A stretch of DNA of 64,000 nt from Candidatus Omnitrophota bacterium. Its GTDB lineage: Bacteria; Omnitrophota; Gorgyraeia; JAHJTE01. Made by a program: the position numbers and the translations under genes. Below the pieces are notes generated by a model. It was not told the origin of the DNA. It saw only the letters and a program-made list of their open reading frames with translations, and made no database searches. The stretch spans positions 193,332 through 257,331 of the forward strand of contig JAHJTE010000001.1 in assembly GCA_018830005.1 (NCBI GenBank), written 5' to 3'. This document shows, piece by piece, positions 36,374 to 61,624 of this stretch (position 1 is the stretch's first letter; the number at the start of each line of letters is the position of its first letter).

Positions 36374-37456
36374 GTGAAGCCTCATCTCATAAAGACCAAA
36401 GAAAAAGACAATTATATCCAGCAGCTTGAAGCAAAGCTCCTACCCCGCGGCCGTCCGCTTGCCGGGCAGATTGATGTTACATACCGCTGTAATCTAGCCT
36501 GCCAACATTGTTTTATTGTCCCTGAAGAAAACACTGAGGAACTTAAATTTAGCCAAATAATATCTATTATAGATCAGCTCTATGAGGCAGGCTGCCTTTT
36601 TCTTTACTTTAGCGGAGGAGAACCTTTTTTAAGAGAAGATTTTTTGGATATCTATACTTATGCCAGAAACAAAGGCTTTTTAGTCAGCATATTCACAAAC
36701 GGTACTCTTATAAGCGAGGAGATTCTAGATTACTTAGTTAAACTTCCTCCCTATTCTATCGAGATTACATTAAACGGAATAACCCAAGATGTGTATGAAC
36801 AAATAACCCAAGTTAAAGGTTCTTTTTCAAAAGTGATGAAGGCAATAGAGTTGATTAAAGATAAGAATCTGCCTCTTGTTCTTAAATGTAATGGCATGAA
36901 GATAAATTACGATCAGATTTTGAAGATAGAAGAGTTCTCACAAGATTTATTAGGCAAAAAATACTTCCGCTGTAACCTTTCACTTGATCCTGCAATGGAT
37001 GGTTCAAAGAGGCCGTGTGCTCTTAGGCTTAGTCCTGAAGAGACATTAAATATAGTGCATTCTGATGAGGATATGTTTTCACTCTGCCGAGAAGAATTCC
37101 TGCATCACAAAGATAATTCACGCTTAAAAGATGGCTATCTATTTCCTTGCGGCTTGAGTTATTTTAATATTGACGCTTACGGTAAGATGAGACTTTGTTT
37201 ATTTATCAGAGAGGCCTACAGCGACTTGAAGAAAGAAAAATTCTTAAGAGGCTTTGCAAGAATTTATGAAAATCTTTCCGGACTTAAATTCAAGACTAAC
37301 AGCAAATGTCGAAATTGCAATATAAGTTATCTCTGTCGGCAGTGTCCGGGCAGGGCCTTAGCAGAGAATGTTGATATGGAGGCTCCGGTTGAGTTTTTCT
37401 GCGAACTTGCGCATAAAGAGGCGCAGAGGATGGAAGAGGTTTTAGTTAAAAAGTAA
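36374..37456 (+). CDS. Radical SAM/SPASM-domain peptide-modifying enzyme #1 (GTG start)
   Basis: rSAM 'CNLACQHC' (CX3CX2C); 'FSGGEP'; C-terminal SPASM-like 'CGLSYFNIDAYGKMRLC…CRNCNISYLCRQCP'. Confidence 0.8.
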   Translation: MKPHLIKTKEKDNYIQQLEAKLLPRGRPLAGQIDVTYRCNLACQHCFIVPEENTEELKFSQIISIIDQLYEAGCLFLYFSGGEPFLREDFLDIYTYARNKGFLVSIFTNGTLISEEILDYLVKLPPYSIEITLNGITQDVYEQITQVKGSFSKVMKAIELIKDKNLPLVLKCNGMKINYDQILKIEEFSQDLLGKKYFRCNLSLDPAMDGSKRPCALRLSPEETLNIVHSDEDMFSLCREEFLHHKDNSRLKDGYLFPCGLSYFNIDAYGKMRLCLFIREAYSDLKKEKFLRGFARIYENLSGLKFKTNSKCRNCNISYLCRQCPGRALAENVDMEAPVEFFCELAHKEAQRMEEVLVKK

Positions 37457-37479: not shown

Positions 37480-38007
37480 ATGCTTAAGTTAGATGAAGTT
37501 TATGTAAAAGAGCAAGATTCCTGGGTAAGCAGACATATTTTGGATGAGGTAGTGATTATGCCTTTATGTAGAAGCGCTGATGACATGCAGTATATCTATT
37601 CAATTTCCAATGAGACTGGTTCAAGGATTTGGCAGCTTCTGGATGGTGATAATTCGACCTGGGATATCCAGGAGACAATAAAGTCAGAGTATCAAGGTCA
37701 GTTCGAGGTAATAGAGCGAGAAGTGTTGGGATTCTTGAAAGATCTTTCTGAGGCAGGGCTTATTCGCAAGGCCAGAATTAAACCGAAAACCGAAAACCTA
37801 AACCCGAAACCCGAGATAAAAAAGAAACCCTACAAGAGCCCAGAGATTGCCAAGGTAAAGTTACAGCCTGAGCAGGCAGTCTTAAGTTGCTGTACAATCA
37901 ACGGCGGTTATAAAGGAACCACTGTAAATAGATGCGCTGGTCTATGTCCAATTGATGCTTCATGCAACGCATTATCGGATCAATCCCGTGATGCGCTTGC
38001 CACTTAA
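37480..38007 (+). CDS. PqqD/RRE-like domain protein with Lys/Pro-rich linker and Cys-rich C-terminal tail
   Basis: N-terminal PqqD-like 'ISNETGSRIWQLLDGDNSTWDIQETI…EVLGFLKDLSEAGLI'; tail 'AVLSCCTINGGYKGTTVNRCAGLCPIDASCNAL' (5 Cys in 30 aa); SD 'AAAGGGAGGTG'. Confidence 0.65.
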   Translation: MLKLDEVYVKEQDSWVSRHILDEVVIMPLCRSADDMQYIYSISNETGSRIWQLLDGDNSTWDIQETIKSEYQGQFEVIEREVLGFLKDLSEAGLIRKARIKPKTENLNPKPEIKKKPYKSPEIAKVKLQPEQAVLSCCTINGGYKGTTVNRCAGLCPIDASCNALSDQSRDALAT

Positions 38008-38175: not shown

Positions 38176-39285
38176 ATGATAAACCAAGGTGATTACGATA
38201 AATTTCAAGCAAGATTAATCAAGAAGGCAAGGAACAAGGCCTTTCCTCTTAAGGCAATGTTTGAACTTACCTATAGGTGTAACCTTAAATGCCGACACTG
38301 CTATGTGTGCGATGGCGAGAATAGAAAAGAATTACAAACCCAGGAGGTCTTTTCTATTCTTGATCAGTTGGCAGAGGCAGGATGTCTAAATTTAGGTTTT
38401 ACAGGAGGAGAGCCTTTCCTGCGAAAGGATATATTTGATATTTTAAGATATGCTAAGAATAAGGGATTTAATACCGTACTTTTGACCAATGCGACTTTGA
38501 TTGAAGAAGCTGATGCAGACAGGTTAAAAGAGTTGGGTCTAAATAAGATTGATGTATCTTTTCATACTAGGAAGCAAGAGGTTTTTGATTGGTTTACTCA
38601 AAGGCCTGGTACATATAAAAGAGTCTCAGAGGCAGTCAGGCTCTTAAGAAAAAAAGGCATTGATGTTTTTCTTAAAACGACTGCAATGACTATAAATAAG
38701 GATGAGATTTTAGCCTTGAGGCATCTTGCAGTAGAGAAATTTGGCGCACATTTTCGCTGGAGTTCGATAATAACTCCAGACCTAGAGGCTAATAAGGAGA
38801 ATTTGAGGTTTCGTTTAACAGCAGAGGATGTTAATTGTCTAGAGAAGCAGATTAGAGATGATAGTGTAATAGAATTTGAAAAACTAGACACCTTGGAAAA
38901 AATAAATAGAAAGTCAGCGAAAAGGCAAAGGCCTATTAGAAAGATAAATCATAACCAGCTGTTTCATTGTGGTGCAGGCAAAACAGAGGTTGTAATAGAC
39001 CCCTATGGCCAGATGAGATTATGTCTGGATATACCATTCCCAAAATACGATATTTTAAAGAGTAATTTCTCCCAAAGCTGGAAGATGTTAACTGATTTTG
39101 TAAGAGATACAGCTGGCGGGTCTAGTTATCAATGTCAAGACTGTGAACTTATTCAATATTGTAAGTCTTGTCCTGCGTATGCATGGCTTGAGTGCGGTGA
39201 CATCAGTGCTTGCCCGCCATATTTTAGAGAGCTGGCGCGTCTGGCAAAGATGGAATCCGAAACAGAGGATATAAAGATTGCATGA
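38176..39285 (+). CDS. Radical SAM/SPASM-domain enzyme #2
   Basis: 'CNLKCRHC'; 'FTGGEP'; SPASM-like 'CGAGKTEVVIDPYGQMRLC…CQDCELIQYCKSCP'. Confidence 0.8.
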   Translation: MINQGDYDKFQARLIKKARNKAFPLKAMFELTYRCNLKCRHCYVCDGENRKELQTQEVFSILDQLAEAGCLNLGFTGGEPFLRKDIFDILRYAKNKGFNTVLLTNATLIEEADADRLKELGLNKIDVSFHTRKQEVFDWFTQRPGTYKRVSEAVRLLRKKGIDVFLKTTAMTINKDEILALRHLAVEKFGAHFRWSSIITPDLEANKENLRFRLTAEDVNCLEKQIRDDSVIEFEKLDTLEKINRKSAKRQRPIRKINHNQLFHCGAGKTEVVIDPYGQMRLCLDIPFPKYDILKSNFSQSWKMLTDFVRDTAGGSSYQCQDCELIQYCKSCPAYAWLECGDISACPPYFRELARLAKMESETEDIKIA

Positions 39286-40193
39286 GGAAAGAACTTAGAT
39301 TAGAAATTGCCGGGATTGGATTTTTATTTCGTTATAATAATTGTCAGATTAAAGAAGGCAGATATAGTCCAGCATACCTTGAGGATTTTATTAAACCGGG
39401 TAATAATAGTGATTTCATTATTGATCTTGACGTGGGATCTCTTCCTGCAATTCCTAGGGGGAGGCTGTTGTTTGAATCAAAGGAGAATTGGCGTTCCTTT
39501 GCGCATAACGGAAGTTTCCTAATCGAGACTTACTATGGTAAGTCAGAGATAACCAGGGTTTGTGTAATAAATAAAGATCTAAGTAAGGCAAAGGTATATA
39601 TCTCACCCTGGACAGACGAATTTGATAAAAAGAAAAGACTTAAAAACAATCCTCCCAAGAACTGGTCACTGGAGACATTTTTTTCTGTTTTAGGCCAGCT
39701 TATTTTAATCAACCTATTACATAAATATCAGGGGCTTCTTTTGCATGCCTGTGGTGTAGTTGTTGATGGTGCGGGATTAGTTTTTCCCGGGATATCAGGC
39801 GCAGGCAAGACGACTCTGACAAGGTTATGGCAGAAGAGGGGTGGCCTTGGCCTATTAAGCGATGATCGGGTAATTATTCGAAAGATAAATAAAGAATATT
39901 TTGTTTCTGGAAGCCCTTGGCCAGGCGAGGCCAGGATTGCCTCTGGTAAATCAGCGCCGCTTAGTAAAATCCTGTTTCTTTCCAAGGCCAATCAAAATAA
40001 ACTCAAAGCCCTAGGAAAAAGAGAAAGTCTATATCTGCTTATGAGGCAGTGTTTTCCTCCTATATGGGATAGACAGGCGATTGATTTTTTTCTTAAGTTT
40101 TGCGCAAGTCTAGTCGAAGATGTCCCCTGTTTTTCATTTGGTTTTGTTCCGGATGAAAGCGCGCTAGATTTTATTTTAAAAAACCACTCATGA
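39282..40193 (+). CDS. HPr kinase C-terminal-domain-like (HprK-related) P-loop protein #1
   Basis: 'LLLHACGVVVDGAGLVFPGISGAGKTTL' and 'LLSDDRVII' resemble HprK/P catalytic core; ATGA overlap with upstream rSAM. Confidence 0.65.
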   Translation: MRKELRLEIAGIGFLFRYNNCQIKEGRYSPAYLEDFIKPGNNSDFIIDLDVGSLPAIPRGRLLFESKENWRSFAHNGSFLIETYYGKSEITRVCVINKDLSKAKVYISPWTDEFDKKKRLKNNPPKNWSLETFFSVLGQLILINLLHKYQGLLLHACGVVVDGAGLVFPGISGAGKTTLTRLWQKRGGLGLLSDDRVIIRKINKEYFVSGSPWPGEARIASGKSAPLSKILFLSKANQNKLKALGKRESLYLLMRQCFPPIWDRQAIDFFLKFCASLVEDVPCFSFGFVPDESALDFILKNHS

Positions 40194-41293
40194 TTAAAGA
40201 GTTAAGATTTAGGAAAGAATTTACAGAAAGGCTGGAGCGAAAGCGCGATAAGATGGATTTTCCCCGCAATGTAATTTTTGAGATTACACATCAATGCAAT
40301 CTGCGTTGTCGGCATTGCTATGTAGTGCCAGATTCCAGAAAAAAAGAATTAACGACTTCGCAGGTTAAATCAGTTTTTAAGCAATTAGTTGATGTAGGTT
40401 GTCTTCATCTGACCTTAACTGGTGGTGAGCCTTTAGTGCGGCCGGATATCATTTCCTTGATTGACTATGCCCGCAGGCTAGGGCTTTTTATCCATCTTTT
40501 TACCAATGCCACCCTTATAAATCTTGAGATTGCTGATAAATTAGGAGAGCTTAGCCTTACATCCTTAGAGATATCTTTTCACAGTCTTAAGCCTAAACGT
40601 TTTGATTCCTTTACTAGAGTGGAAGGTTCTTTTGATTCGGTGATGAAGGCAATCAGGCTTGTTAAAGAGAGAAAAGAAAGCATTGCCTTAAAGATAAACA
40701 TAACCAAGGCAAACCTTGATGAGATTGATGATTTCAAAGAGTTTGCGAATGATTTAGACGCGGTCATTGAATGGGGAACTATTCTTAGACCAAGGAATGA
40801 TGGTTCACAGGATAATCTATCTTTACGTCTTGAGCCAGAAGAGGCATTAAAGCTAGGCTATATGCTTGGTCTTGAATCTATTCTTGATGAGCCAATACAT
40901 AATAATAAAGAATGTCATCCTCCAGAAAATAAACTCACCAAGCCAAATAGAAATAGGATAGAGAGCGAGTTATTTCGTTGTGGGATCGGCAGTGAAGGTT
41001 TAGTTATTGACCCCTACGGAGAATTAAAGCCTTGTCTTGTGCTTGGCCTTTTAGGCTATTCTATTTTTGATAGCAGTCTAAAGCAGGCATGGATAAATTT
41101 AAGAGCTGATTTGAATTCAATGAAACCGACAGCTGATTATAAATGTCTTGATTGTAATCTAGGGCATTATTGTTCATCTTGTCCAGCAAGAGCGAAACTT
41201 GAATGTAATGATATGAACTCATGTCCTGATTATTATCGTCGGCTGGCAGAATTAAGGTGTCAAAATAATGGCTATAAGAATTCAAGAATATAA
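40190..41293 (+). CDS. Radical SAM/SPASM-domain enzyme #3
   Basis: 'CNLRCRHC'; 'LTGGEP'; 'CGIGSEGLVIDPYGELKPC…CLDCNLGHYCSSCP'. Confidence 0.8.
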   Translation: MIKELRFRKEFTERLERKRDKMDFPRNVIFEITHQCNLRCRHCYVVPDSRKKELTTSQVKSVFKQLVDVGCLHLTLTGGEPLVRPDIISLIDYARRLGLFIHLFTNATLINLEIADKLGELSLTSLEISFHSLKPKRFDSFTRVEGSFDSVMKAIRLVKERKESIALKINITKANLDEIDDFKEFANDLDAVIEWGTILRPRNDGSQDNLSLRLEPEEALKLGYMLGLESILDEPIHNNKECHPPENKLTKPNRNRIESELFRCGIGSEGLVIDPYGELKPCLVLGLLGYSIFDSSLKQAWINLRADLNSMKPTADYKCLDCNLGHYCSSCPARAKLECNDMNSCPDYYRRLAELRCQNNGYKNSRI

Positions 41294-42389
41294 GGACTTT
41301 AGCTTGAGGCTTCATGATAAAGGTTCAAGAAAGCCGATTCTGGGACAATTTGAGCTCACCCATAACTGCAATCTTGCTTGTCAGCATTGTTATGTTGTAA
41401 ATGAACCCCAAAGGCAGGAACTTTCTTACAGTGAGCTTTGCCGTATCTTTGATGAAGTTTATGAACAAGGATGTTTCTGGCTCTGTTTTACTGGAGGCGA
41501 GCCCCTGTTGCGGAAAGATTTTCTTGATATTTACTCATATGCCTACAAAAAAGGATTTCTTATTAGTATCTTTACTAATGCGACACTTTTTAATGAGAAT
41601 ATAGCAGGACACCTTAAGGATTTTCCGCCCTTTTGCATTGAGGTAACCTTGAATGGCATTACTAAAAAAACATACGAATTAATTAGCCAAAGGCCGGGTT
41701 CTTTTGAGCTAGCAATGCGCGGCATTGAACTTATCCGAAAGTTTAAGCTCCCCTTAAAGTTAAAATGCCAGATAATGACTTTAAATATAGATGAGATCGA
41801 TTTGATGCGTAAATTTTATGATAAGATGAACATGGCTTTTCTTTGCAGTCTGATAATTAACCCACGCTTAGACGGTTCGACTCAGACCACTTCTTTGCGT
41901 TTGCCGATTGAGAAAATATTGGAACTTAGAAGGCAAAAAGAAGGACTAGCTGAATGTAGTGATTCTTCAAGGGATATCTTAGGTATGTTGATGCTTCCAG
42001 ATAAGAAAGAAGACATTTTTTTAGAGGAAGATTCATCATTTGACGGGGATAATGAATTAAACCTTGCCTCTGATGCGCTGTTTCGTTGTCCAGGAGGAAC
42101 ATGGGCATTCTATGTTAATCCTTATGGTGAACTTTGTTTTTGTAATTCGCTAAGAGAGCCAGCGTGGGATTTGCGCAAGAATTCATTCAAGCAAGGTTTT
42201 TATGAATTTTTTCCAAAGATTCGCTCAGAGAAGTTTAAAACCGATTCTAAATGCCGAGATTGCGATATCAAGTCAGACTGCCTTAGTTGTCCGGCAAGGG
42301 CTTATTTAGAGACAGGTGATAGAGAGGCCCCTTTGCCCTATTATTGTGAGTTGGCTCAAAAAAACAGGAAGAAAGAAATCAGGACTTAA
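41268..42389 (+). CDS. Radical SAM/SPASM-domain enzyme #4
   Basis: 'CNLACQHC'; 'FTGGEP'; 'CPGGTWAFYVNPYGELCFC…CRDCDIKSDCLSCP'. Confidence 0.8.
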   Translation: MAIRIQEYKDFSLRLHDKGSRKPILGQFELTHNCNLACQHCYVVNEPQRQELSYSELCRIFDEVYEQGCFWLCFTGGEPLLRKDFLDIYSYAYKKGFLISIFTNATLFNENIAGHLKDFPPFCIEVTLNGITKKTYELISQRPGSFELAMRGIELIRKFKLPLKLKCQIMTLNIDEIDLMRKFYDKMNMAFLCSLIINPRLDGSTQTTSLRLPIEKILELRRQKEGLAECSDSSRDILGMLMLPDKKEDIFLEEDSSFDGDNELNLASDALFRCPGGTWAFYVNPYGELCFCNSLREPAWDLRKNSFKQGFYEFFPKIRSEKFKTDSKCRDCDIKSDCLSCPARAYLETGDREAPLPYYCELAQKNRKKEIRT

Positions 42390-42398: not shown

Positions 42399-44009
42399 AT
42401 GAATAGTAGGCGTTTACGTGTCGGCATAATATCACGAAAGAATTTAGGTTCATTAAACAGCCTAAGCTGTAGGGTGCTTTTTAAAAACGCCTTAAAGATC
42501 GTTGAGAGTAGATTCAATGCGTGCTGTTGCTTCCTGAATAGCTCTACTAACTCAAACAAGAAGGAGATAGCACTTAAGAAGCTTACCTCTTCTTGCGATG
42601 TGATTTTGGAATTAGCTCCAGGGCAAATGTTTGATATAAAGGCCAAATCAATACCTAGAGTCTTTTTTGCACTTGGTTTTATGTCAAATCCTTTCAATCT
42701 CATGGCTAGCTTTAACAGAAAACTCATGACAGCCAATTCCGTTCTTTTCTCATGCAAAGCGGATTTGGAAATGTTTAATAAAATATTTGGCAAGACAGGA
42801 CGCAGTATGGGCTATATTGTGCCTTTCCCTCTAGAAGTTAATGAATTCAAACCACAAAGTGAGCTTGAAAATAAACGCATGCGAGAAAGATTTGGTATTG
42901 GAGGAGATGTCTTTCTTATCTTGTATGCGGGAAGAATTAACGTGCAGAAGAATATACACACATTACTTAAGATATTTAGAGAGGCCATTAAGAGATTTCC
43001 GCAAACAAGACTTTGTATAGCCGGCGAAGAAGACAGGGGTGGCTTTGAAGAGTTTGGTATTAGTAATAATGGATATACCGGCTATATTAGGAGGAAATGC
43101 CTTGAATACGGGATTGCCGATAAAGTAATATTTACTGGAAAATTAAAAAGAGAAGACCTTATATCTTTATATTCAAGTGCTGATGTTTTCATGAATTGTA
43201 CTATCAGCCAGTATGAAAATTTTGGCTATTCCCAGGTTGAGGCTATGGCCTGCGGCACGCCGGTTATTTGTTCGCATTGGGGTGGATTGAAAGATACAGT
43301 TATTCATGGTAAGTGCGGTTATCATATGCCAACCATACTTAGCAATAACGGCGTAAAGGTTGACTGGCAAAGTGGCTTAAGGCAGTTGATAGGTCTCTTA
43401 GAAGATAAGGATAGACTCAAAGAAATGTCAAGACAGGCAAGAGAACACGCAAAGCTAAACTTCTCTTTCGATAGATTTGCTAAGATGTTAGAATTCGTAC
43501 TTTTAGATACAATGAAGCGCAATAATAAGAATAAAAAACACCACTATTTGCTAAAGATTAAAAAAGAAAATCCTCATTTTATGAATTTATTCATGGAGTA
43601 TCTGTATGTAAACCGTAAAAATTACAAGAAGGGGCCGGTCTGTGTGAATAGCCCCAAAAGCCTCTTCTTTAGGCGAAATTATAGTCACTATAAATCTTTT
43701 ATAAAAGCCTACAGTTCTCTATCTGGTTCTGAAATGCTTAAAAGAAATGGCTCCATACCCTACTTTCTACAGGATGTCAGACTTATGTATAAAGGGCAGC
43801 GCCTTTATATCCAAGATCCTCTCTGGCCAGCAAGATACAGATTAGAGGATTGGCAATTTAGAATTGCCTCAGTTATTGATGGCAATAGAAGCCTGGAGGA
43901 TATTAATTCTAATTTTATACACAGGGGTTTTAAAAAAAGGAGAGATTCGCTTAAGAGGTTCTATAAGCATCTTGCTGAAGAGGGCGTAGTATCATTTCTT
44001 AGTAATTAG
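42399..44009 (+). CDS. GT4-family (GT-B) glycosyltransferase with C-terminal PqqD/RRE-like domain
   Basis: GT4 C-domain 'FLILYAGRINVQKNIHTLL…CIAGEED…NFGYSQVEAMACGTPVICSHWGGL'; C-terminal ~70 aa 'RIASVIDGNRSLEDINSNF…SLKRFYKHLAEEGVVSFL' resembles PqqD. Confidence 0.6.
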   Translation: MNSRRLRVGIISRKNLGSLNSLSCRVLFKNALKIVESRFNACCCFLNSSTNSNKKEIALKKLTSSCDVILELAPGQMFDIKAKSIPRVFFALGFMSNPFNLMASFNRKLMTANSVLFSCKADLEMFNKIFGKTGRSMGYIVPFPLEVNEFKPQSELENKRMRERFGIGGDVFLILYAGRINVQKNIHTLLKIFREAIKRFPQTRLCIAGEEDRGGFEEFGISNNGYTGYIRRKCLEYGIADKVIFTGKLKREDLISLYSSADVFMNCTISQYENFGYSQVEAMACGTPVICSHWGGLKDTVIHGKCGYHMPTILSNNGVKVDWQSGLRQLIGLLEDKDRLKEMSRQAREHAKLNFSFDRFAKMLEFVLLDTMKRNNKNKKHHYLLKIKKENPHFMNLFMEYLYVNRKNYKKGPVCVNSPKSLFFRRNYSHYKSFIKAYSSLSGSEMLKRNGSIPYFLQDVRLMYKGQRLYIQDPLWPARYRLEDWQFRIASVIDGNRSLEDINSNFIHRGFKKRRDSLKRFYKHLAEEGVVSFLSN

Positions 44010-44033: not shown

Positions 44034-45113
44034 ATGAGCAGAAAAACTTATTTTGATTTACTTTACAGACTAAAGGATAATATCTTTCCTTTAAGGGCAC
44101 AGATAGCATTAACCTATAGGTGTAACTTAAACTGCGTTCATTGTTTCGAGAATAAGGACAGTCGAGATGAGTTAACCCTTTCAGAAATAAAAGATATATT
44201 AAATCAGCTAAAAGATCTGGGTTGTTTGCGGCTAAATTTTACAGGAGGAGAGTTATTTTTAAGAAAAGATGTATTAGAGATTTTCGAGCTTGCGCGCAGG
44301 ATGAATTTTGACTTTAGCCTAATAACTAACGCTACGCTCCTAACAGAAGGCCTAGTCAGGAATATTAAAAAATTTAATCCTTCAACGATACAGATTAGTC
44401 TCTATGGGGCAACTAAGAAGGTCTATGAATCTATTAGCAATGTTTCTGGCTCTTTTAAGAAAACATTAGATGCAATTTCACTTTTAAAGGTGCATAATCT
44501 AAAATTAAGAATAGCTACAGTTGTAATGCGCCAGAATTTTCACGAAATAAAAATTATAAGACAGATGGCCAGAATTAATAAATGGAATTTGATAACAGAT
44601 TATTGCATATCGCCAGGATATAATGGTTCAAGAGTTCCTTTAAAATGCAGAATGACTCAAAATCAGCTTAAGAAAGCTGTTACTGAACTTAAGTCAGAAG
44701 GCAGGTATTTAAAAAAAATGAACACTATCTCTAAAGAAAGGCTTTTCTGTCTTTTATCTTTTTGTCAGCATGAGTGTTATATTTCAGCACAGGCAGATGT
44801 GTTTCCATCATGTACTTTAAGAATGAAACTAGGCAGCCTAAGAGAAAAATCCTTTGAAGAAATCTGGAGAGATTCCCAAGTTGCCAAGACCTTAAGGGGC
44901 TTGAAAAAAGAGGAGTTATATTGTCTGCGTTGTAGGCTTTTTTTCTACTGTTGTTTTGACAAAGGCATGGCCTGGTTGGAGCATGGAGATTTTAGGCTTC
45001 CAGCAAAAGAGATATGCAGGGTAATGAAGGCAGGAATAAGGAGAGATGGTAAGCTCTTGCCGCCAGGATTAGTGTCAAAGGTTAAATTCCCGTCCACTAT
45101 TTCGTTTTCTTAG
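44034..45113 (+). CDS. Radical SAM/SPASM-domain enzyme #5 (divergent C-terminus)
   Basis: 'CNLNCVHC'; 'FTGGEL'; Cys-rich C-term 'CLLSFCQHECY…FPSC…CLRCRLFFYCCF'. Confidence 0.75.
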   Translation: MSRKTYFDLLYRLKDNIFPLRAQIALTYRCNLNCVHCFENKDSRDELTLSEIKDILNQLKDLGCLRLNFTGGELFLRKDVLEIFELARRMNFDFSLITNATLLTEGLVRNIKKFNPSTIQISLYGATKKVYESISNVSGSFKKTLDAISLLKVHNLKLRIATVVMRQNFHEIKIIRQMARINKWNLITDYCISPGYNGSRVPLKCRMTQNQLKKAVTELKSEGRYLKKMNTISKERLFCLLSFCQHECYISAQADVFPSCTLRMKLGSLREKSFEEIWRDSQVAKTLRGLKKEELYCLRCRLFFYCCFDKGMAWLEHGDFRLPAKEICRVMKAGIRRDGKLLPPGLVSKVKFPSTISFS

Positions 45114-45155: not shown

Positions 45156-45290
45156 ATGATGAGAAAGGATTCCAAAAAAATTTCAAAGACAAGAAATGCT
45201 AAGGACAAATATGAGAAGCCAAAACTTTTCAAATACAGAATGGTAGATGTTGCCAGTGCTTTAGTAGCTGGACAGATAGAACCTTTATGA
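45156..45290 (+). CDS. Unannotated small ORF, 44 aa: MMRKDSKKISKTRNAKDKYEKPKLFKYRMVDVASALVAGQIEPL; candidate precursor peptide
   Basis: Not in the six-frame track (<60 aa). Strong SD 'AAAGGGGG' at 45145-45152; tandem ATGs at 45156 and 45159; lies in the 284-nt gap between rSAM #5 and the stand-alone PqqD gene; Lys-rich N-terminal half, hydrophobic small-residue C-terminal half. Confidence 0.45.
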   Translation: MMRKDSKKISKTRNAKDKYEKPKLFKYRMVDVASALVAGQIEPL

Positions 45291-45408
45291 ATAGAGCAGA
45301 TGTTTGCTTGATATCCTATGGCTTGAATTAGTTTTTCTAATGGGTAGATTATATATTTACTGAAGGAAAAATCTATCTGTTAACTAATAAATAAACTTGG
45401 AGGTAGAT

Positions 45409-45699
45409 ATGGCCTTAAGGGAAGGATGCAATCGTTTTAAAATCCAGAAGGATAAAATTGCCCACCGCTTAATTAATAATGAAGTGGTAATTTTGCATTT
45501 AGAGCGTGGTCTTTATTTCAGTCTTAATAAAACCGCTACTTTTATCTGGAAACTTATAGAGCAAGGCAGGGATTTAGGCCAGATGTCAGAGGCGTTCGCT
45601 AAAAGGTTTGAATGCAAAGAGGCAGAGGCAATAAAGGATGTCAATGTCTTAATAGGCGATTTAGAAAAAGAAGGACTCATAGATAAGATTAAGAAATAA
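45409..45699 (+). CDS. Stand-alone PqqD-family (RRE) protein; start at ATG 45409 with GGAGG at 45399-45403 (track ORF starts at an upstream TTG)
   Basis: 96 aa; 'INNEVVILHLERGLYFSLNKTATFIWKLIEQGRDLGQM…KDVNVLIGDLEKEGLI' typical PqqD. Confidence 0.75.
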   Translation: MALREGCNRFKIQKDKIAHRLINNEVVILHLERGLYFSLNKTATFIWKLIEQGRDLGQMSEAFAKRFECKEAEAIKDVNVLIGDLEKEGLIDKIKK

Positions 45700-45776: not shown

Positions 45777-46982
45777 ATGAATATTGCTATTATTGCTCAT
45801 TCCTATTTGCCTGATGTTGGTGGTAGCCAGGAAACAATCAGGGGATTAGCTAAAGAATTTTCAAAGCAAGCTCATGAAGTAATTATTTTGGTACTTACTC
45901 CTGGCCCAGGCGGAGAATTCAAGAATGCAACAGAAAACCATTTTTTTAGATTTAAGGCATTCGAGGTTATTGAGGGGATAGATGTTCATAGACTACGCGT
46001 TCCTTTTCTAGGAGTTCCCCGCATAGGAATAAAAGGACTGATTGACACCTTAAGACTCCTTGTTTTTTTACCGGGTGTATTAATAAAATCAGCCAAGATA
46101 ATAAAAGACAATAAGATTCAGATAATTAATGTCCATTATGCAGGCATAAATGCATTTTGTACTTGGCTGCTTTCCTACCCACTCTCCTTAAAATACATAG
46201 TTACATTGCAGGGTTTTAATGTGCAGGTACTCCCATTTTTAAAAGGTTTGAGAGGATTTATTATTCGTTTTGTTTTTAAGTCTATATTGCAGCGCGCCAG
46301 TTTTGTTACTGCCTGTTCTGAGTATCTACTTAATGATGCAAAAGAAAGAGTCCCCCAGATAAGAAATAAGTCTTGTGTTATCCCCAATGGCATAGATTTG
46401 GATGAGTTTAAGCATAACGGCCGAAGTTTAATAGATTATCCCTACATCCTTTGCCTGGGAAGACTGCATGCACCCTTTAAAGGTTTTGATATTGCCCTGC
46501 TTGCACTCAAGGATATCCTAGATTCAGGCCTTGATATAAATCTGGTTCTAGCCGGAGACGGGCCAGATAGCGCTGAATATAAAAAACTTGCAGAATCTTT
46601 AAGCATAGAGAAAAATGTGCATTTCTTTGGTCTGGCCAACCGCGTAGAGGCAGTATATTTTATTAAAAACTGCCAATTCTTTGTGATGCCTTCACGCGTT
46701 GAACCTCTAGGTATTGTAAACTTAGAGGCCATGGCCTGTTCTAAGGCAGTCATTGCCTCAAGAGTAGGCGGTATACCAGAGGTAGTTGAGCACGGTGTAA
46801 ATGGGTTATTAGTTGAGCCTGCGGATGTCAAGGTGCTTGCTAGAGCCATAAAAAGATTATTAGTTGATAAGGACTTAAGAGTTAAACTCGGCAGAAACGG
46901 CAGGCGCATGCTAGAGGCTGGAGAATTTTCTTGGCAGAGGCTATCTCGTAGATACCTAAAACTGTATAGAGAATTTTTATAA
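45777..46982 (+). CDS. GT4-family glycosyltransferase (paralog a)
   Basis: 'YLPDVGGSQE'; 'LGRLHAPFKGFDIALLAL…LVLAGDGP', 'FVMPSRVEPLGIVNLEAMACSKAVIASRVGGIPEVV'. Confidence 0.8.
   Translation: MNIAIIAHSYLPDVGGSQETIRGLAKEFSKQAHEVIILVLTPGPGGEFKNATENHFFRFKAFEVIEGIDVHRLRVPFLGVPRIGIKGLIDTLRLLVFLPGVLIKSAKIIKDNKIQIINVHYAGINAFCTWLLSYPLSLKYIVTLQGFNVQVLPFLKGLRGFIIRFVFKSILQRASFVTACSEYLLNDAKERVPQIRNKSCVIPNGIDLDEFKHNGRSLIDYPYILCLGRLHAPFKGFDIALLALKDILDSGLDINLVLAGDGPDSAEYKKLAESLSIEKNVHFFGLANRVEAVYFIKNCQFFVMPSRVEPLGIVNLEAMACSKAVIASRVGGIPEVVEHGVNGLLVEPADVKVLARAIKRLLVDKDLRVKLGRNGRRMLEAGEFSWQRLSRRYLKLYREFL
46268..46793 (+). repeat. Copy A of duplicated GT4 segments, >98% DNA identity with 48599-49124 at a constant 2331-bp offset; identical blocks 46268-46566 and 46668-46793 separated by diverged sequence
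   Basis: Direct comparison of both copies; only about 3 mismatches in the 299-bp block. Confidence 0.85.
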
Positions 46983-46985
46983 ATA

Positions 46986-48122
46986 ATGCAGAATAATTCC
47001 TTCGACTTTAATTTAGCTTCAAAGATAAAGAACAAAGAGGCAGGCATAAGAGATATACGCAATAGGAATGGAATATGTGAAGGCTTGCCTGCGGTTTTAA
47101 CCATCGTTGATACTACAAGATGTAATTTAGACTGCATAATGTGTGTAAGAAATAAAGGCTACTTACAAACTGCTTTAAGGTCTTTTAAGCGCTATAGTCG
47201 GCGTAGAGATGAGACTGTCATGAATTTTAATCTGTTTAAAAAAATAGCCAGCGAGATGTTTCCTCATATTAGCCGAGTTTGCTTAAGCGTAGCAGGGGAG
47301 CCTTTTATTAATCCAAATTTTCCTAGACAGCTAGAGCTAATTGAATCCTATAAGGTTTGGCTAGACCTCTTTACTAACGCTACTCTCATACCCAAGGATG
47401 AGCTTTTGAGGAGATTAGTTAATAGGCTATCGCGCATGGTAGTTTCTATTGATGGCGCCAGCAAGAAGACTTACGAGAGCATAAGAAAAGGAGCTAGATT
47501 CCAGGAGGTTATAGATAATATTAAGCGTCTTAATACAGAAAGAATGAAGATAGATAAAGAAATAAGGCCTAAGCTCGTCTTCTGGTTTGTATTGATGAGA
47601 AGGAATATCGAGGAATTGCCAGAATATGTGCGCTTAGCCCATAGCCTGGGGGCAGACGGGATAGGTGCGGCGCATGTTACTATATTCAAGAAAAGCTTAG
47701 AGAAAGAATCGTTGGTTTATCACAAACAGTTAGCCAACCGCTATTTAAAACAGGCAAGAGATTTAATTGACAAATTGGGCCTGGAGACTTTTGATTTTCC
47801 TCCTTTGTTTTCGCAGGTTCCTGTTTCGCAAGATAAAGTTGATACTCCAATGCCTAATTCGCCGTGCAAATTTCTCTGGAGAGAGGCGGTCATTGAATTA
47901 AATGGAGATGTTTATCCTTGTTGTGCTCCCGAGAAAACCGGTTTACTGATGGGAAATGTCAGCAAGCAATCTTTCAGAGAAATCTGGAGTGGTAAGCGCT
48001 ATCAGATATTAAGGGCAAGTTTTGAGGATGGCTATTTATATCCACCTTGCAAGAATTGTTATCAACGATTAAAAGATCGTACCTCAGATAACAGCGGTAT
48101 CTATTTTTTCGAAAACGTATAG
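46986..48122 (+). CDS. Radical SAM/SPASM-domain enzyme #6
   Basis: 'CNLDCIMC'; 'VAGEPF'; C-term 'CKFLWREAVIELNGDVYPCCAP…CKNCYQRL'. Confidence 0.75.
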   Translation: MQNNSFDFNLASKIKNKEAGIRDIRNRNGICEGLPAVLTIVDTTRCNLDCIMCVRNKGYLQTALRSFKRYSRRRDETVMNFNLFKKIASEMFPHISRVCLSVAGEPFINPNFPRQLELIESYKVWLDLFTNATLIPKDELLRRLVNRLSRMVVSIDGASKKTYESIRKGARFQEVIDNIKRLNTERMKIDKEIRPKLVFWFVLMRRNIEELPEYVRLAHSLGADGIGAAHVTIFKKSLEKESLVYHKQLANRYLKQARDLIDKLGLETFDFPPLFSQVPVSQDKVDTPMPNSPCKFLWREAVIELNGDVYPCCAPEKTGLLMGNVSKQSFREIWSGKRYQILRASFEDGYLYPPCKNCYQRLKDRTSDNSGIYFFENV

Positions 48123-48143
48123 TTAGGCCTTAAGAAAGTAATT

Positions 48144-49325
48144 ATGAATATAACAATTTTTCCTCATGCCTATTTGCCTAGCGTAGGGGGCGTAGAAGAG
48201 GTAGTCAGAAATCTAGCCAGAGAATTTAAGGCAAAAGGCCATCGTGTAGGACTAATAGTATTTGTTCCACTTAGAAGATTCAGGGCACGTGAGATTATTG
48301 AAGGAATAGAAGTTAGAAGATTCTATGTTCCCTTTGTAATATTGCCCTATAGAGTGAGCTGGCGAGCTTTTCTTGATGTAGTTGAAATGCTTGTTTGTTT
48401 GCCTCTTGCCCTGGTTAGAATAGCGCGCATACTCAAAGAAAATAATAGCCAAATAATACACATACATTATATTGGCGTAAATGCATTTTATATTTGGTTG
48501 CTTTCCTATTTTCTCTCCTTAAAATACATCGTAAGTTTGCACGGCTTTAATTTACAAGTAATACCTTTCCTGAAAGGCGCAAGCAGAGCTGTTCTTAATT
48601 TTGTTTTTAAGTCTATATTGCAGCGCGCCAGTTTTGTTACTGCCTGTTCTGAGTATCTACTTGATGATGCAAAAGAAAGAGTCCCCCAGATAAGAAATAA
48701 GTCTTGTGTTATCCCCAATGGCATAGATTTGGATGAGTTTAAGCATAACGGCCGCAGTTTAATAGATTATCCCTACATCCTTTGCCTGGGAAGACTGCAT
48801 GCACCCTTTAAAGGTTTTGATATTGCCCTGCTTGCACTCAAGGATATACTAGATTCAGGCCTTGATATAAATCTGGTTCTAGCCGGAGACGGGCCAGCCC
48901 GCACTTCTTATGAGAGATTGATAAGATTATTAAAGATAGAGAAAAATGTGCATTTATTTGGTTTGGCAAATAGAAAAGATGCAGTAAATTTAATCAGAAA
49001 CTGCCAATTCTTTGTGATGCCTTCACGCGTTGAACCTCTAGGTATTGTAAACTTAGAGGCCATGGCCTGTTCTAAGGCAGTCATTGCTTCCAGAGTAGGC
49101 GGTATACCAGAGGTAGTTGAGCATGGCCTAACCGGATTATTAGTTGAGTCATGCAGCGAGAAAGCACTGGCTGCAGCGATAAAGCGACTTATGGAAGATA
49201 AGAATTTAAGAATCAGACTTGGCAGAAACGGCAGGCTTAAGGCTGAGCAACGTGGATTTTCTTGGGAGTTTATAGCCGATAAACATCTGGAGATATCAAA
49301 AGGATTTTTGAATTATGAAGATTGA
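48144..49325 (+). CDS. GT4-family glycosyltransferase (paralog b; divergent N-terminal half, near-identical C-terminal half to paralog a)
   Basis: 'YLPSVGGVEEVV'; C-terminal half identical at protein level over 'FKSILQRASFVTACSEYLL…GIDLDEFKHNGRSLIDYPYILCLGRLHAPFKGFDIALLALKDILDSGLDINLVLAGDGP'. Confidence 0.8.
   Translation: MNITIFPHAYLPSVGGVEEVVRNLAREFKAKGHRVGLIVFVPLRRFRAREIIEGIEVRRFYVPFVILPYRVSWRAFLDVVEMLVCLPLALVRIARILKENNSQIIHIHYIGVNAFYIWLLSYFLSLKYIVSLHGFNLQVIPFLKGASRAVLNFVFKSILQRASFVTACSEYLLDDAKERVPQIRNKSCVIPNGIDLDEFKHNGRSLIDYPYILCLGRLHAPFKGFDIALLALKDILDSGLDINLVLAGDGPARTSYERLIRLLKIEKNVHLFGLANRKDAVNLIRNCQFFVMPSRVEPLGIVNLEAMACSKAVIASRVGGIPEVVEHGLTGLLVESCSEKALAAAIKRLMEDKNLRIRLGRNGRLKAEQRGFSWEFIADKHLEISKGFLNYED
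48599..49124 (+). repeat. Copy B of duplicated GT4 segments (see 46268-46793)
   Basis: Same as copy A; tandem duplication unit of 2331 bp comprising GT4 + rSAM. Confidence 0.85.
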
Positions 49326-50427
49326 CCCCTTTGATTATACAATAGGCTTAAAGATAAAAAATATAGAGGCGGCCTTAAGGGATAGGGAATTTCAAAATAG
49401 CACCTGTGAATCTTTCCCTGCATCTTTAACCATTGCAGATACTACAAGATGTAATCTAGACTGTATAATGTGTCATCACCATTTGGCCAAGACATATACA
49501 AAGTCTGCAAGCAATATTAATATGGATTTTAATCTATTTTCGAAGATTGCCAAAGAGACATTTCCCCATATTAACCTTGTTAGTTTAAGTGTATCTGGAG
49601 AACCTTTCATTAATCCAAATTTTTCTAAAGAGTTAGAGTTAATCGCTTTCCACAAGGTTAAGTTAGGTATTATTACTAACGCCACACTCATGCCAAAAGG
49701 CGATAGCCTAAGGAGACTTGTTAATAATCTCTCTAGTATAATTGTTTCTATTGATGCTGCTAGCAAGAAAACTTACGAGGCTATAAGAAAAGGCGCTAGA
49801 TTCCAACAGGTTATCGATAACGTCAAGCGGCTTAATAGGGCAAGACTAAAATTCAGTAAAAGTTTTAGACCCAAGCTTATCTTCTGGCTAGTTTTGATGA
49901 GGAAAAATATTGAAGAGTTATCAGAATATGTGCGCTTAGCTCATGCTCTTAAGGCAGACGGGATAGGACTGGTCCACATGTCAATACATCATGAGAAATT
50001 AAAAAAAGAATCATTGATTTACCACAAGCGATTGACGAATCGCTGCTTAAAGGCAGCAAGAAAGCTAATAGATAGTTTTGGCATTGAAGTCTATAATATT
50101 GCACCTTTGTTTTCTTTTGGTAGGACACCCATTAAAAAGAGCTATTATACTTTAAACAAGAGACCTTGTAAATTTCCTTGGCGGGAGGCATTTATTGAAG
50201 TAAATGGTGATGTTTATCCTTGTTGTGCTCCGGACAAAAGTGGTTTATTGATGGGTAATGTTAGAGAGCAGACGTTTAGACAGATTTGGAATGGCAGGCG
50301 CTATCGATTATTGCGAACCAGCTTTAAAAACGGCAATCTATTTGCTCCTTGCAAGAACTGTTACCAAAGATTAAAAGATTATACCTCAGATATCAGCGGT
50401 ATCTATTTCCCGCCGCCTATTGCATGA
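49315..50427 (+). CDS. Radical SAM/SPASM-domain enzyme #7 (paralog of #6, ~55-60% aa identity)
   Basis: Same 'TTRCNLDCIMC' block; 'VSGEPF'; 'CKFPWREAFIEVNGDVYPCCAP…CKNCYQRL'. Confidence 0.75.
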   Translation: MKIDPFDYTIGLKIKNIEAALRDREFQNSTCESFPASLTIADTTRCNLDCIMCHHHLAKTYTKSASNINMDFNLFSKIAKETFPHINLVSLSVSGEPFINPNFSKELELIAFHKVKLGIITNATLMPKGDSLRRLVNNLSSIIVSIDAASKKTYEAIRKGARFQQVIDNVKRLNRARLKFSKSFRPKLIFWLVLMRKNIEELSEYVRLAHALKADGIGLVHMSIHHEKLKKESLIYHKRLTNRCLKAARKLIDSFGIEVYNIAPLFSFGRTPIKKSYYTLNKRPCKFPWREAFIEVNGDVYPCCAPDKSGLLMGNVREQTFRQIWNGRRYRLLRTSFKNGNLFAPCKNCYQRLKDYTSDISGIYFPPPIA

Positions 50428-52205
50428 AAATGTCAGAACAAATCCACAAAGAACAAGTCGCTAAAGACCTCCTTTATGAATCTATAAAAGATGGCAGGAA
50501 GCGATCTCTAAAGGTAATAGGTAGTTGTATGCATCCAGTGATACAGCCAGGGGATGAAGTATTTTTTGGAAAAAGAGAGAAGTTTAGATTCGGTGATTTA
50601 GTGGTTTACAGGCAAAGTCAGGGCTTTATTGTCCATAGGTTTATTAGAAAGGCAAAGGTTAATAACAAACTAGTTTTTATATTAAAGGCAGATAATCCCT
50701 CTGAACTTGAGGAATTCATCGGGCAGGATGAGATTATCGGCGTAGTTACTAAACTGAGACGTAACGGCAGGATTTTAATTATTGATACATTTGCAGGCAG
50801 ACTTACGAGTTTATTTTATTTCTGTCTGGCTAATTTAAATCTTGCTCAAAGTAGGCTAAAACAAAGGCATGAGCTCTTAGCTATTAAGGCACTGCCTGCT
50901 AGATTAAAGAGTATAATTTCTACTAAAGTCTTCAACCTAAAAGACGTTTTTGCCTTTGGGATAGTAGAGACTGAGCAAGATTCATTTTTGAAAGAAAGGA
51001 AGACATTAAAACTAGTCGCTAAAGATTCGCTTTGTAAGGATGAGGAAACGCAATTAATAGATTTATTGAAAAATGGCCTTGATTGGCAATACGTCCTAGA
51101 GAGAATTAAATGGAATTTTATCATACCTTTTTATATTCAAAAGCTAAAGAGTTTCGGCTGGGAGGAAGATTTATATAGAAGGAATCACTGTTTAGATTTA
51201 GAGAATATCCATAGACTTCAGCTTATACAGGATACAAAAACTAGGCTTATTCTAGACGGGGTATTAGGGGAATTTAATAAACATGGTATTAAGGTGCTCG
51301 TACTTAAAGGAGCTCATTTAGGAATAGAGGTTTATGAGGACAGTTCCCAGCGCTGGATGGGAGATATTGATTTAATCTTGAGAATAGAAGATTGGTCTAA
51401 GGCATGCAAGATCTTAAATGATTTGGGTTTTGTGCTTGATTGGTTTTGTAAAGACTATAATATTTGGAGCATAAGATATCTAGATAATCATATTGACTTT
51501 CGCAAGCAAGGTATAAAATTAGAATTAAAAACAGGCATTTGGGCCATAGATTTTCCTTATTTCAATTATAGTCTTTGGCAAGATGCCAGATTAAAGAGGA
51601 TAGGAAAAGCAGATATATATTTTCCTTCCTATGAGGATACTCTTCTGATAGCCTGCGTTAATCTCGTTCGCCATAATTTCTCAGGATTAATCTGGTTCCT
51701 GGACACAAAAAAGATCGTTGATAAATTTAAAGACTCATTAGATTGGGATGTATTTTTAGATAAAGTCTCTAGATACGATTTAGGAACCGCAGTTTATTAC
51801 GGACTTTATTTAACTGATAAGTTATTTTCTTTAACATTACCCCCTGATTTGTTAGCTAAATTTAAGCCGCCTAGATTGGTGGATAAATTATTCAATTTCT
51901 TCTGGGATAGGAAAGCGATATTACTTGAAAAGGAAGGCCTTGTATTTAAGAACAAGGTGCCTTTTGAGTGCGCTTTTGTTTTATTCTGCGGCAAGTTTAG
52001 TTTTAGGCCTGAAAAATTTGTAAGATATGTAGTATATTTATTAAAGCTGATTTTTCCTCCCCAAGACTTTATCAGAGATAAATACAAGATTAAAGTCAAT
52101 CTAGTTAGCCTATCAAGATGTTATTTAGTTAGATTGTTTAGTTTTTTATCTACGTTGTTTAGTTTGCTCTTTGACTTATTTGCGGATAAAGACAGGCGAG
52201 CCTAA
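50424..52205 (+). CDS. Two-domain protein: N-terminal S24/S26 (LexA/signal-peptidase-like) Ser-Lys peptidase domain + C-terminal nucleotidyltransferase-family domain (PF14907-like); start at ATG 50424 (ATGA overlap with rSAM #7 stop)
   Basis: 'VIGSCMHPVIQPGDEVFF…GDLVVYRQSQGFIVHRFIRK' resembles the S26/S24 Ser…Lys fold; C-term 'LKGAHLGIEVYEDSSQRWMGDIDLILRIEDW' typical of the uncharacterised NTase family. Confidence 0.55.
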   Translation: MKMSEQIHKEQVAKDLLYESIKDGRKRSLKVIGSCMHPVIQPGDEVFFGKREKFRFGDLVVYRQSQGFIVHRFIRKAKVNNKLVFILKADNPSELEEFIGQDEIIGVVTKLRRNGRILIIDTFAGRLTSLFYFCLANLNLAQSRLKQRHELLAIKALPARLKSIISTKVFNLKDVFAFGIVETEQDSFLKERKTLKLVAKDSLCKDEETQLIDLLKNGLDWQYVLERIKWNFIIPFYIQKLKSFGWEEDLYRRNHCLDLENIHRLQLIQDTKTRLILDGVLGEFNKHGIKVLVLKGAHLGIEVYEDSSQRWMGDIDLILRIEDWSKACKILNDLGFVLDWFCKDYNIWSIRYLDNHIDFRKQGIKLELKTGIWAIDFPYFNYSLWQDARLKRIGKADIYFPSYEDTLLIACVNLVRHNFSGLIWFLDTKKIVDKFKDSLDWDVFLDKVSRYDLGTAVYYGLYLTDKLFSLTLPPDLLAKFKPPRLVDKLFNFFWDRKAILLEKEGLVFKNKVPFECAFVLFCGKFSFRPEKFVRYVVYLLKLIFPPQDFIRDKYKIKVNLVSLSRCYLVRLFSFLSTLFSLLFDLFADKDRRA

Positions 52206-53127: not shown

Positions 53128-53434
53128 AGCTTAAATTGGTAATTAATTTTAACTTTTTTAATTGCCGCAAGAGTGTTAAGTAATCAGCCCCTGCCTTTTT
53201 GTAGCTTGTTTTGTGTTTTTTCATTAGGCATTTTATAATTTTTTCCGGAGATTTTTTTAATAGAAGGCCTTCTAGTATATCAAGGGAGGATTTTGTAGTA
53301 AAATTAAGTGATTTTAGGATGTCGGCGAAAGAATATTTGCTTTCATCTATGACTACAAAGACAAATTCATTGCATAGTTTTGCCCAGACAATTTTTTCAT
53401 GTTTTAGCTCGTATCTCTTTTTTAGCTCGTCCAT
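53093..53434 (-). CDS. PqqD-family (RRE) protein
   Basis: 113 aa; 'IVWAKLCNEFVFVVIDESKYSFADILKSLNFTTKSSLDILEGLLLK…' PqqD-like; overlaps downstream kinase gene by 35 nt. Confidence 0.6.
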   Translation of the reverse strand: MDELKKRYELKHEKIVWAKLCNEFVFVVIDESKYSFADILKSLNFTTKSSLDILEGLLLKKSPEKIIKCLMKKHKTSYKKAGADYLTLLRQLKKLKLITNLSYANLFKKYIST

Positions 53435-61613: not shown

Positions 61614-61624
61614 GTTAAAAGTTT

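Follow-up and report, generated by a model that had tools for sequence, protein, structure and literature searches.

Few glycosyltransferases of pathways for peptides that are ribosomally synthesised and post-translationally modified (RiPPs) have been characterised, and most of them are family 2 enzymes (GT2) of glycocin pathways without a recognition element. Here we describe a gene at 42399-44009 of a 64,000-nucleotide stretch from a Candidatus Omnitrophota bacterium (contig JAHJTE010000001.1 of assembly GCA_018830005.1, positions 193,332 to 257,331; hereafter the window), which encodes a family 4 glycosyltransferase (GT4) whose C-terminal tail probably has a fold like that of a RiPP recognition element (RRE). 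The S-/O-glycosyltransferases of glycocins (SunS/ThuS type, GT2) and IgtG glycosylate ribosomal peptides (PMC11912497), but these are GT-A/GT2 enzymes without an RRE, whereas the 42399 enzyme is of the GT-B/GT4 type. IgtG, a deacetylase/GT2 membrane protein that acts on the mature lasso peptide, was reported in a 2025 study as the only glycosyltransferase co-occurring with lasso genes (PMC11912497); in contrast, GT4-tail genes of the kind described here were found in two lasso clusters (L006 and L091).

The fusion of RREs to tailoring enzymes is an established principle. RRE-Finder listed RRE-glycosyltransferase fusions in 2020 (56 exploratory, 20 precision; e.g. KIF29242.1 of Hassallia byssoidea), and an update of 2025 named RRE fusions to PF00535 (GT2). 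Since such fusions had already been flagged bioinformatically, the statement in the initial annotation of the gene that its architecture is undescribed was too strong, and no experimental characterisation of these fusions was found in the literature describing them. The 42399 enzyme shares with them the presumed logic of leader-guided tailoring. New by comparison are the GT4 (GT-B, PF00534) partner in place of GT2, the C-terminal site of the domain behind a helical linker of ~75 residues, a divergence too great for the PqqD models of Pfam and NCBIfam, and the occurrence in lasso clusters. Homolog searches, including one started from the relative P0014, returned no Hassallia relative of the GT4-tail family, and this divergent type is unannotated and uncharacterised.

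Discrete RREs of lasso and linear polyphosphorylated peptide (LPP) clusters (TbiB1, TfuB1/FusB1, LppB and PbaB1; PF05402) have the same predicted topology and size as the tail of the 42399 protein, and the YxxPx(L/I/V) recognition motif of their precursors recurs in the precursors that accompany the tail. Unlike these proteins, the tail is fused to an enzyme, has an extra N-terminal strand as well as a C-terminal strand, and is detectably similar to them only in profile-to-profile comparison and over the helices. Experiments have established YxxPxL as the motif through which lasso and LPP leaders are bound by RREs, and in the LPP clusters described by Popov et al. (2026) the precursors carry a YxxPx(V/L) leader motif that is bound by a discrete RRE (PMC13381572). 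With these clusters and with paeninodin-type lasso tailoring modules (PMC13381572) the window shares a peptidase, an NTP-transferase, an HprK-like kinase, a discrete RRE and an MsbA-like exporter. In contrast to LPP clusters, however, it belongs to Omnitrophota and not to Bacillota, its peptidase and NTP-transferase are fused, and it further encodes a methyltransferase, a probable fusion of PqqD with a precursor, three GT4s and at least seven radical SAM enzymes. A GT4 travelling with radical SAM peptide maturases is likewise described by the model TIGR04157 (glyco_rSAM_CFB) of a Bacteroidetes radical-SAM peptide system, but this 406-position model has no tail and its match covers only the C-domain (residues 154-365) of the 42399 protein.

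Domain organization of the GT4-tail protein

The gene and its parts are as follows (aa, amino acid residues of the product).

42399-44009, forward strand: GT4 glycosyltransferase with C-terminal extension, 536 aa (open reading frame (ORF), Pfam, NCBIfam, homologs, AlphaFold)
42873-43445, forward strand: donor-binding C-domain of the GT4 (aa 159-349), carrying R179/K184 and E273-x7-E281 (Pfam PF00534)
43515-43745, forward strand: helical linker, aa ~373-449, with a disordered loop at aa 413-419 (AlphaFold; kept across the family)
43749-44003, forward strand: predicted RRE-like domain (aa 451-535), with three helices between four beta-strands and a terminal strand (AlphaFold, Foldseek, hhalign)

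The GT4 donor-binding motifs noted at first inspection were confirmed. Pfam Glycos_transf_1 (PF00534) matched aa 159-349 with an E-value of 3e-32 (111.8 bits against a cut-off of 26.4), and YENFGYSQVEAMACGTPVI holds the EX7E motif E273...E281. In an alignment of 105 homologs G178, R179, K184, E273 and E281 were invariant; we take E273/E281 to be the GT4 EX7E motif and R179/K184 to be the Arg/Lys pair binding the nucleotide diphosphate. Several GT4-type NCBIfam models also matched the domain, the best of them being TIGR04157 (E 7e-30), whose curated cut-off was not reached (104.3 bits against 400; profile positions 210-403 only). The full-length AlphaFold2 model, built on an input alignment of 105 sequences (pLDDT 91.4, pTM 0.92), was of the GT-B type in Foldseek, where the closest structures were MshA, HepE, PimB' and BshA (E 1e-16 to 1e-18, TMt 0.69-0.76). 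Motifs and fold predict that the product is a catalytically competent retaining GT4. Given that the matches of the full-length model in the PDB were all GT4 enzymes at TMq <= 0.55, the tail is absent from every solved structure.

The reading frame is not a chance ORF, since full-length homologs at 52-53% identity exist among the 708 that were detectable; databases annotate these homologs at most as 'glycosyltransferase family 4' or 'cell wall biosynthesis'. An identical public protein (P0001) has 511 aa and starts at 42474, 25 codons 3' of the ATG at 42399. P0002 and P0003, however, cover 100% of the 536-aa version in alignment, which favours the longer ORF.

Beyond the GT4 domain the protein continues for about 170 residues, a longer extension than the ~150 residues first estimated. 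The linker helices of the model (383-390, 392-410, 425-438 and 443-449) lead to strands at 451-456, 460-463, 468-471 and 478-481, helices at 484-491, 499-508 and 515-527 and a terminal strand at 531-535, all of the latter elements with pLDDT >90. The isolated domain (aa 445-536) was modelled in the same arrangement (pLDDT 92.4, pTM 0.80; in its own numbering strands 9-12, 16-19, 24-27 and 34-37, helices 40-47, 55-64 and 68-83, and strand 87-90), and this model shows the RRE topology as defined in PMC12710340. Within this domain of beta-sheet and three helices, RIASVIDGNRSLEDINSNF...RFYKHLAEEGVVSFL forms the three helices, and a 'DPxWPxxYxL' motif is conserved. The initial annotation had seen a PqqD/RRE-like fold in the last ~70 residues; such a fold is supported by AlphaFold, by superposition on TbiB1 and by hhalign (82%), but the domain extends over aa ~451-535, ~85 residues, and starts ~35 residues earlier.

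Compared with TbiB1 carrying its leader (5v1v), the tail gave a Foldseek probability of 0.97, TMq 0.70 / TMt 0.73 and an rmsd of 3.2 over 87 columns, with a weak E-value. Further whole-domain matches, their E-values also weak, were TbiB1 (5v1u), TfuB1 (6jx3), PqqD (5sxy), MadB, SuiB and CteB. At the level of sequence, hhalign aligned the close-clade tail with 28 PqqD sequences at 82% probability (P 1e-5, score 34.8, 51 columns, helices only) and with 8 PqqD proteins of the same clusters at 59% (P 9e-5, score 29.2), while single PqqD sequences were matched weakly (2% and 28%). Controls, one reversed and 70 column-shuffled, scored at most 15.7 (at most 15.2 against the 34.8 match). These alignments are in register up to and including helix 3, beginning where the last strand ends or, for the larger profile, at helix 1. 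The sole related NCBIfam match of the tail was the RRE protein ApyI (NF050149), with 12.6 bits (cut-off 200) and E 0.062. Taking structure and profile comparisons together, we are fairly confident of an RRE-like fold, and homology of the tail to PqqD is plausible, although not proven.

Distribution and genomic context of the tail

A hidden Markov model (HMM) iterated from the tail detected a homologous tail of ~143 residues in 111 of the 120 best matches, which makes the tail a trait of the family and not an accident of the 42399 gene. When a profile of the last ~90-130 residues was searched exhaustively against 1.84 billion representative proteins, 138 representatives were retrieved at E<=1e-3, nearly all of them at the C-terminus of ~550-aa proteins. 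So small a number shows that the tail is not a common extension of exopolysaccharide GT4 enzymes, the interpretation that the initial annotation had set against its own. For the clade of the 42399 enzyme that interpretation also disagrees with the RiPP contexts described below, but the tail is family-wide and occurs outside RiPP contexts in a sister clade.

Contexts were sampled for 11 homologs and the window (12 in total). In the clade that ends at the RRE-like domain all seven sampled contexts (window, L001, L087, L089, L005, L006 and L091) were RiPP clusters, namely four syntenic radical SAM/PqqD clusters (window, L001, L087, L089), two lasso clusters (L006, L091) and one PqqD/transglutaminase cluster; the proteins from RiPP contexts stop where the RRE-like domain ends or no more than ~20 residues away. 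P0003, P0004 and P0005 (43-52% identity) belong to syntenic radical SAM/PqqD clusters. In all four of these a radical SAM/SPASM gene lies directly 3' of the GT4-tail gene, and in L001 and L089 a small ORF, a PqqD gene and further GT4 and/or radical SAM genes come next, with peptidase-NTP_transf_5, HprK-like and ABC genes further on. The gene of P0014 adjoins genes for PqqD, transglutaminase-core, phosphoribosyltransferase and radical SAM/SPASM proteins.

The genes of P0045 and P0118 belong to two lasso clusters, independent of each other, that have Transglut_core3 and an Asn-synthetase-like cyclase. Region 8455-14277 of L006 (GCA_022823085.1, JAJDXV010000098.1) holds four tandem precursor genes (e.g. 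MRKMLKPEKKTYEAPRLVSYGNATVLVKSGGSPLYDGSCTRRNHNC), the GT4-tail gene, PqqD, Transglut_core3 and the cyclase, the GT4-tail gene standing between the precursor genes and the B1 PqqD gene. The lasso cluster with a GT4-tail gene in L091 (3246-11647) contains two JmjC-type enzymes in addition. Both are candidate clusters for glycosylated lasso peptides. The sister clade has proteins of ~550 aa with ~35 extra C-terminal residues, and over the whole family the tail is not RiPP-specific. P0074, whose tail is like that of P0045 but longer, is an ambiguous case, encoded on a short contig beside ABC transporters. A contig scan with the full-length alignment recovered 80 ordinary GT4 loci through generic core patterns, just one of them with even partial tail similarity, and was of no use for context statistics.

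Candidate precursor peptides

Two genes near the GT4-tail gene may encode peptide substrates.

45156-45290, forward strand: candidate precursor MMRKDSKKISKTRNAKDKYEKPKLFKYRMVDVASALVAGQIEPL, 44 aa, with an alternative TTG start at 45132 (Shine-Dalgarno-like 'aaagggggtg' upstream; positional orthologs)
37480-38007, forward strand: PqqD domain, leader-like segment KKPYKSPEIAKVKLQPEQAVLSCC and Cys-containing variable core, 175 aa (Pfam; homologs)

Positional orthologs of the 45156 peptide are encoded in L001 (4343-4531; ...KKYEKPRLTKYKKLKAFSLGPNVVVSPFTGPG), L089 (3047-3241; ...TYQKPKLVKYKTLSGGSVTGPSVQTDA) and L087 (12729-12851; ...KKYKRPVLISYGKLRKLTAQP), always just 3' of the radical SAM/SPASM gene that follows the GT4-tail gene. 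Peptides of this family are basic at the N-terminus, carry a Y-x-[KR]-P-x-L-x-[KS]-Y motif and have a core of ~10-20 residues, with Ser/Thr among them, that is hypervariable. Such a combination is what one expects of a RiPP precursor. The 45156 peptide and its orthologs show the N-terminal YxxPx(V/L) motif and the variable C-terminus of LPP precursors; the longer LPP consensus YxxPxVLxHQxIxFETxxS was not reproduced in the family. The same YxxPxL motif is found in the lasso precursors of L006, which carry TYEAPRLVSYG.

The 37480 protein consists of a PqqD/RRE domain, a variable basic linker, an invariant KKPYKxPEIAKVKMQPEQAVLSCC and a hypervariable stretch with conserved cysteines (C137/138, C152, C156 and C162) and N150. 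About 50 homologs of 177-190 aa have the same layout, and those with a named source come from Candidatus Omnitrophica. An identical copy of the 37480 protein is also annotated in a genome of Candidatus Omnitrophica, which puts the window in that phylum. The segment KKPYKSPEIAKVKLQPEQAVLSCC is related to the YxxPxL motif. By its layout the protein is probably a second precursor fused to its own RRE, a fusion of which no description was found in the literature search.

The surrounding gene cluster

The GT4-tail gene lies in a large RiPP-type cluster of ~25 kb (33.4-58.3 kb of the window), separated by gaps of 9-24 nt from the radical SAM genes on either side. The remaining genes are listed below.

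33403-34737, reverse strand: B12-binding radical SAM protein, best NCBIfam match the RiPP enzyme ApyD (E 9e-41, sub-threshold; Pfam, NCBIfam)
36374-37456, forward strand: radical SAM protein (Pfam)
38176-39285, forward strand: radical SAM protein (Pfam)
39282-40193, forward strand: HPr-kinase-related protein (Pfam and NCBIfam HprK_rel_B/A, sub-threshold)
40190-41293, forward strand: radical SAM protein (Pfam)
41268-42389, forward strand: radical SAM protein directly upstream of the GT4-tail gene (Pfam)
44034-45113, forward strand: radical SAM/SPASM protein directly downstream of the GT4-tail gene (Pfam; synteny with L001, L087 and L089)
45397-45699, forward strand: discrete PqqD/RRE protein, 100 aa (Pfam PqqD, E 2e-17; lasso_PqqD models)
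45777-46982, forward strand: canonical GT4 without tail, 401 aa (Pfam)
46986-48122, forward strand: radical SAM/SPASM protein paired with the 45777 GT4 (Pfam, NCBIfam)
48144-49325, forward strand: tail-less canonical GT4 of 393 aa, nearly a duplicate of 45777 (Pfam; identical stretches)
49315-50427, forward strand: radical SAM/SPASM protein paired with the 48144 GT4 (Pfam, NCBIfam)
50349-52205, forward strand: archaeal-type signal-peptidase-like (S24) protein fused to NTP_transf_5 (Pfam; TIGR02228 sub-threshold)
52207-53127, reverse strand: HprK-related, kinase A-like protein (Pfam, NCBIfam)
53093-53434, reverse strand: 113-aa protein, possible third discrete RRE (aligns with PqqD proteins; its positional ortholog in L001 is weakly PqqD-like)
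53514-55286, forward strand: MsbA/HlyB-like ABC exporter (Pfam, NCBIfam)
55305-56102, forward strand: SAM-dependent methyltransferase (Pfam)
56095-58347, forward strand: second signal-peptidase-like protein with GNAT and NTP_transf_5, 750 aa (Pfam, NCBIfam)

A gene for a GDSL protein also belongs to the cluster. Between 36374 and 42389 four radical SAM genes are interleaved with the genes for the 175-aa PqqD protein and the HprK-related protein. ApyD, the best match of the 33403 protein, and ApyI, the faint match of the tail, come from one pathway. The 113-aa protein at 53093-53434 had no match in Pfam. The gene set of the LPP core is present (50349 and 56095; 52207 on the reverse strand and 39282; 45397; 53514), several of the matches lying below curated cut-offs, and the cluster joins three GT4s and at least seven radical SAM enzymes to this LPP-like core. 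Reading it as a lasso cluster was considered and rejected, since it lacks the cyclase and the B2 protease: Asn_synthase and Transglut_core were absent among the 25 named ORFs scanned between 33.4 and 58.3 kb, whereas L006 and L091 have both.

The two GT4 paralogs that the initial annotation placed downstream were found at 45777-46982 and 48144-49325, but they are ordinary tail-less enzymes of ~400 residues that resemble each other rather than the 42399 protein. Region 45777-50427 is a tandem duplicate of a GT4 plus radical SAM/SPASM pair, in which antisense ORFs are duplicated as well; together with the long stretches of identical amino acids in the two GT4s, this suggests a recent duplication or gene conversion. 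Farther downstream, polysaccharide export genes occupy 60567-63541 of the forward strand (a Poly_export/SLBB Wza-like protein and a Wzz-GNVR-ParA-type chain-length/tyrosine-kinase protein), and genes for an AAA_22 ATPase and an HD-domain protein stand between them and the RiPP cluster.

Discussion

We lean, with some caution, towards a leader-guided priming glycosylation of a peptide by the 42399 enzyme. The analysis shows the predicted fold, the motifs, the gene context and the precursor family; that the tail binds peptide, which residue accepts the sugar, which donor supplies it and in what order the steps run are inferred as follows. The RRE-like domain would bind the Y-x-x-P-x-L/I leader motif of the 45156 peptide or the leader-like segment of the 37480 protein, and the bound leader would keep the variable core within the GT-B cleft. 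A first sugar would then be moved from a nucleotide diphosphate (NDP)-sugar to a residue of the core, probably Ser/Thr, and the two tail-less GT4s (45777 and 48144) might subsequently lengthen the glycan. That the tail is present on one of the three GT4s of the cluster fits a peptide-priming role for this enzyme. If this is correct, the enzyme would be the first RiPP glycosyltransferase of the GT4 type to contain its own recognition element, and it could be used as a portable and modular catalyst to glycosylate engineered peptides under the direction of a leader. A GT4 with its own leader-binding domain would also give genome mining a new handle, because current PqqD/RRE models miss the domain, and the two lasso clusters with GT4-tail genes would widen the range of known lasso-peptide tailoring reactions. 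The window moreover gives an LPP-like biosynthetic core from Omnitrophota, an uncultured phylum, whereas descriptions of such cores have so far come from Bacillota. In a wider sense it is possible, although we would not press the point, that the tail represents an unrecognised, sequence-divergent branch of the RRE fold and that a GT4 joined to it is a self-contained enzyme for leader-guided peptide glycosylation, a module taken up by no fewer than three kinds of peptide pathway (LPP-like/radical-SAM, lasso and possibly NRPS-linked; NRPS, nonribosomal peptide synthetase).

A number of observations weigh against leader-guided glycosylation by this enzyme. The similarity to PqqD that profile searches had been expected to reveal did emerge in hhalign, modestly and above controls, but at E<=10 neither Pfam nor NCBIfam gave a PqqD match, whether to this tail or to the homologous tails of 12 other proteins, and the tail profile made no connection to the PqqD family in the search of 1.84 billion proteins. 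The hhalign match is confined to three helices, which generic winged-helix proteins also have, and it drops to 8-12% when the alignment is dominated by the ~550-aa clade. Foldseek against the PDB returned no match of the tail domain at E<=1e-3 (E-values 0.2-1), its top-ranked matches were non-RiPP proteins (the carbamoyltransferase GdmN and the methyltransferase Rv2067c), and the method is prone to many false positives on RRE-sized domains (PMC12710340). In the sampled contexts the sister clade keeps a homologous tail without RiPP genes nearby. Finally, two or three discrete PqqD proteins of the cluster could serve all its enzymes, and the same proteins offer themselves as partners if the 42399 enzyme works in the RiPP pathway in another manner, its tail docking a discrete PqqD protein, the PqqD domain of the 37480 protein or a radical SAM enzyme, or else recognising the modified core. 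Such a role would agree with the pTM of 0.92, which suggests a tail packed rigidly on the GT body and not a free adaptor, with the 'DPxWPxxY' turn, which is the best-conserved feature of the tail and not PqqD-like, and with the retention of the tail in relatives next to NRPS genes, where leader peptides are absent; IgtG, which modifies mature lasso peptide and does not recognise a leader (PMC11912497), would be a parallel for recognition of the core. Given, however, that the topology of the tail and its best full-length structural matches are those of leader-bound RREs, and that a YxxPxL leader occurs in every RiPP-context cluster, we regard docking or core recognition as rather unlikely.

It is less probable still, and in our opinion a poor explanation, that the protein is an ordinary GT4 building exopolysaccharide, lipopolysaccharide or cell wall glycans, with a structural or oligomerisation extension whose RRE shape and RiPP location are coincidental. 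The weak sequence and Foldseek statistics of the RRE assignment would be expected in that case, as would the source name 'glycosyltransferase involved in cell wall biosynthesis', the family-wide occurrence of the tail, with a majority (the ~550-aa clade) next to sugar-metabolism or unrelated genes, and the polysaccharide export genes at 60.5-63.5 kb of the window. These export genes are nevertheless separated from the cluster by the AAA and HD genes, and the tail family, with 138 representatives among 1.84 billion proteins, is a rare one. A plain glycan GT4 is disfavoured by the seven of seven clade contexts that are RiPP clusters of three different kinds and by the tight synteny, which includes the gaps of 9-24 nt to radical SAM genes and the conserved order with a precursor and a PqqD gene. 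Hardly any weight can be given to the tail being a winged-helix DNA-binding domain with a regulatory role. An HMM search of the tail profile against PDB sequences gave nothing below E 0.16 and led to winged-helix regulators (YdzF, PerR and Lrp-type, E 0.16-0.4), with PqqCD at 0.41; Pfam matches to winged-helix families were scattered over the window tail and the 12 homologous tails, and the alpha2-alpha3 segment of the window protein is basic. All these matches are insignificant, the basic residues are not kept in homologs, and no precedent was found for a fusion of GT4 with a DNA-binding domain. The order of the strands, which precede the helices as in RREs without a wing after them, argues further against this assignment.

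Leader-guided glycosylation as preferred here concerns the clade ending at the RRE-like domain, whereas the ~550-aa clade is found in other surroundings. P0030 adjoins genes for PMT_2, GT4 and UDP-galactopyranose mutase, P0036 stands among unrelated genes, and P0083 and P0262 adjoin NRPS genes. This adjacency hints that the ~550-aa clade may glycosylate nonribosomal peptides. A 298-aa tail-bearing ORF in L004 was considered as evidence of an independent module and dropped, being probably a frameshifted fragment of another GT4-tail copy. Large NRPS genes in L004 (1-9665) and L092 (1-11662) have genes of this clade at their end or close to it. Two GT4-tail genes stand in tandem in L004, together with a third copy that is probably frameshifted, and in L092 the start of the GT4-tail gene overlaps an Asp/Glu racemase gene that itself lies 3' of the NRPS.

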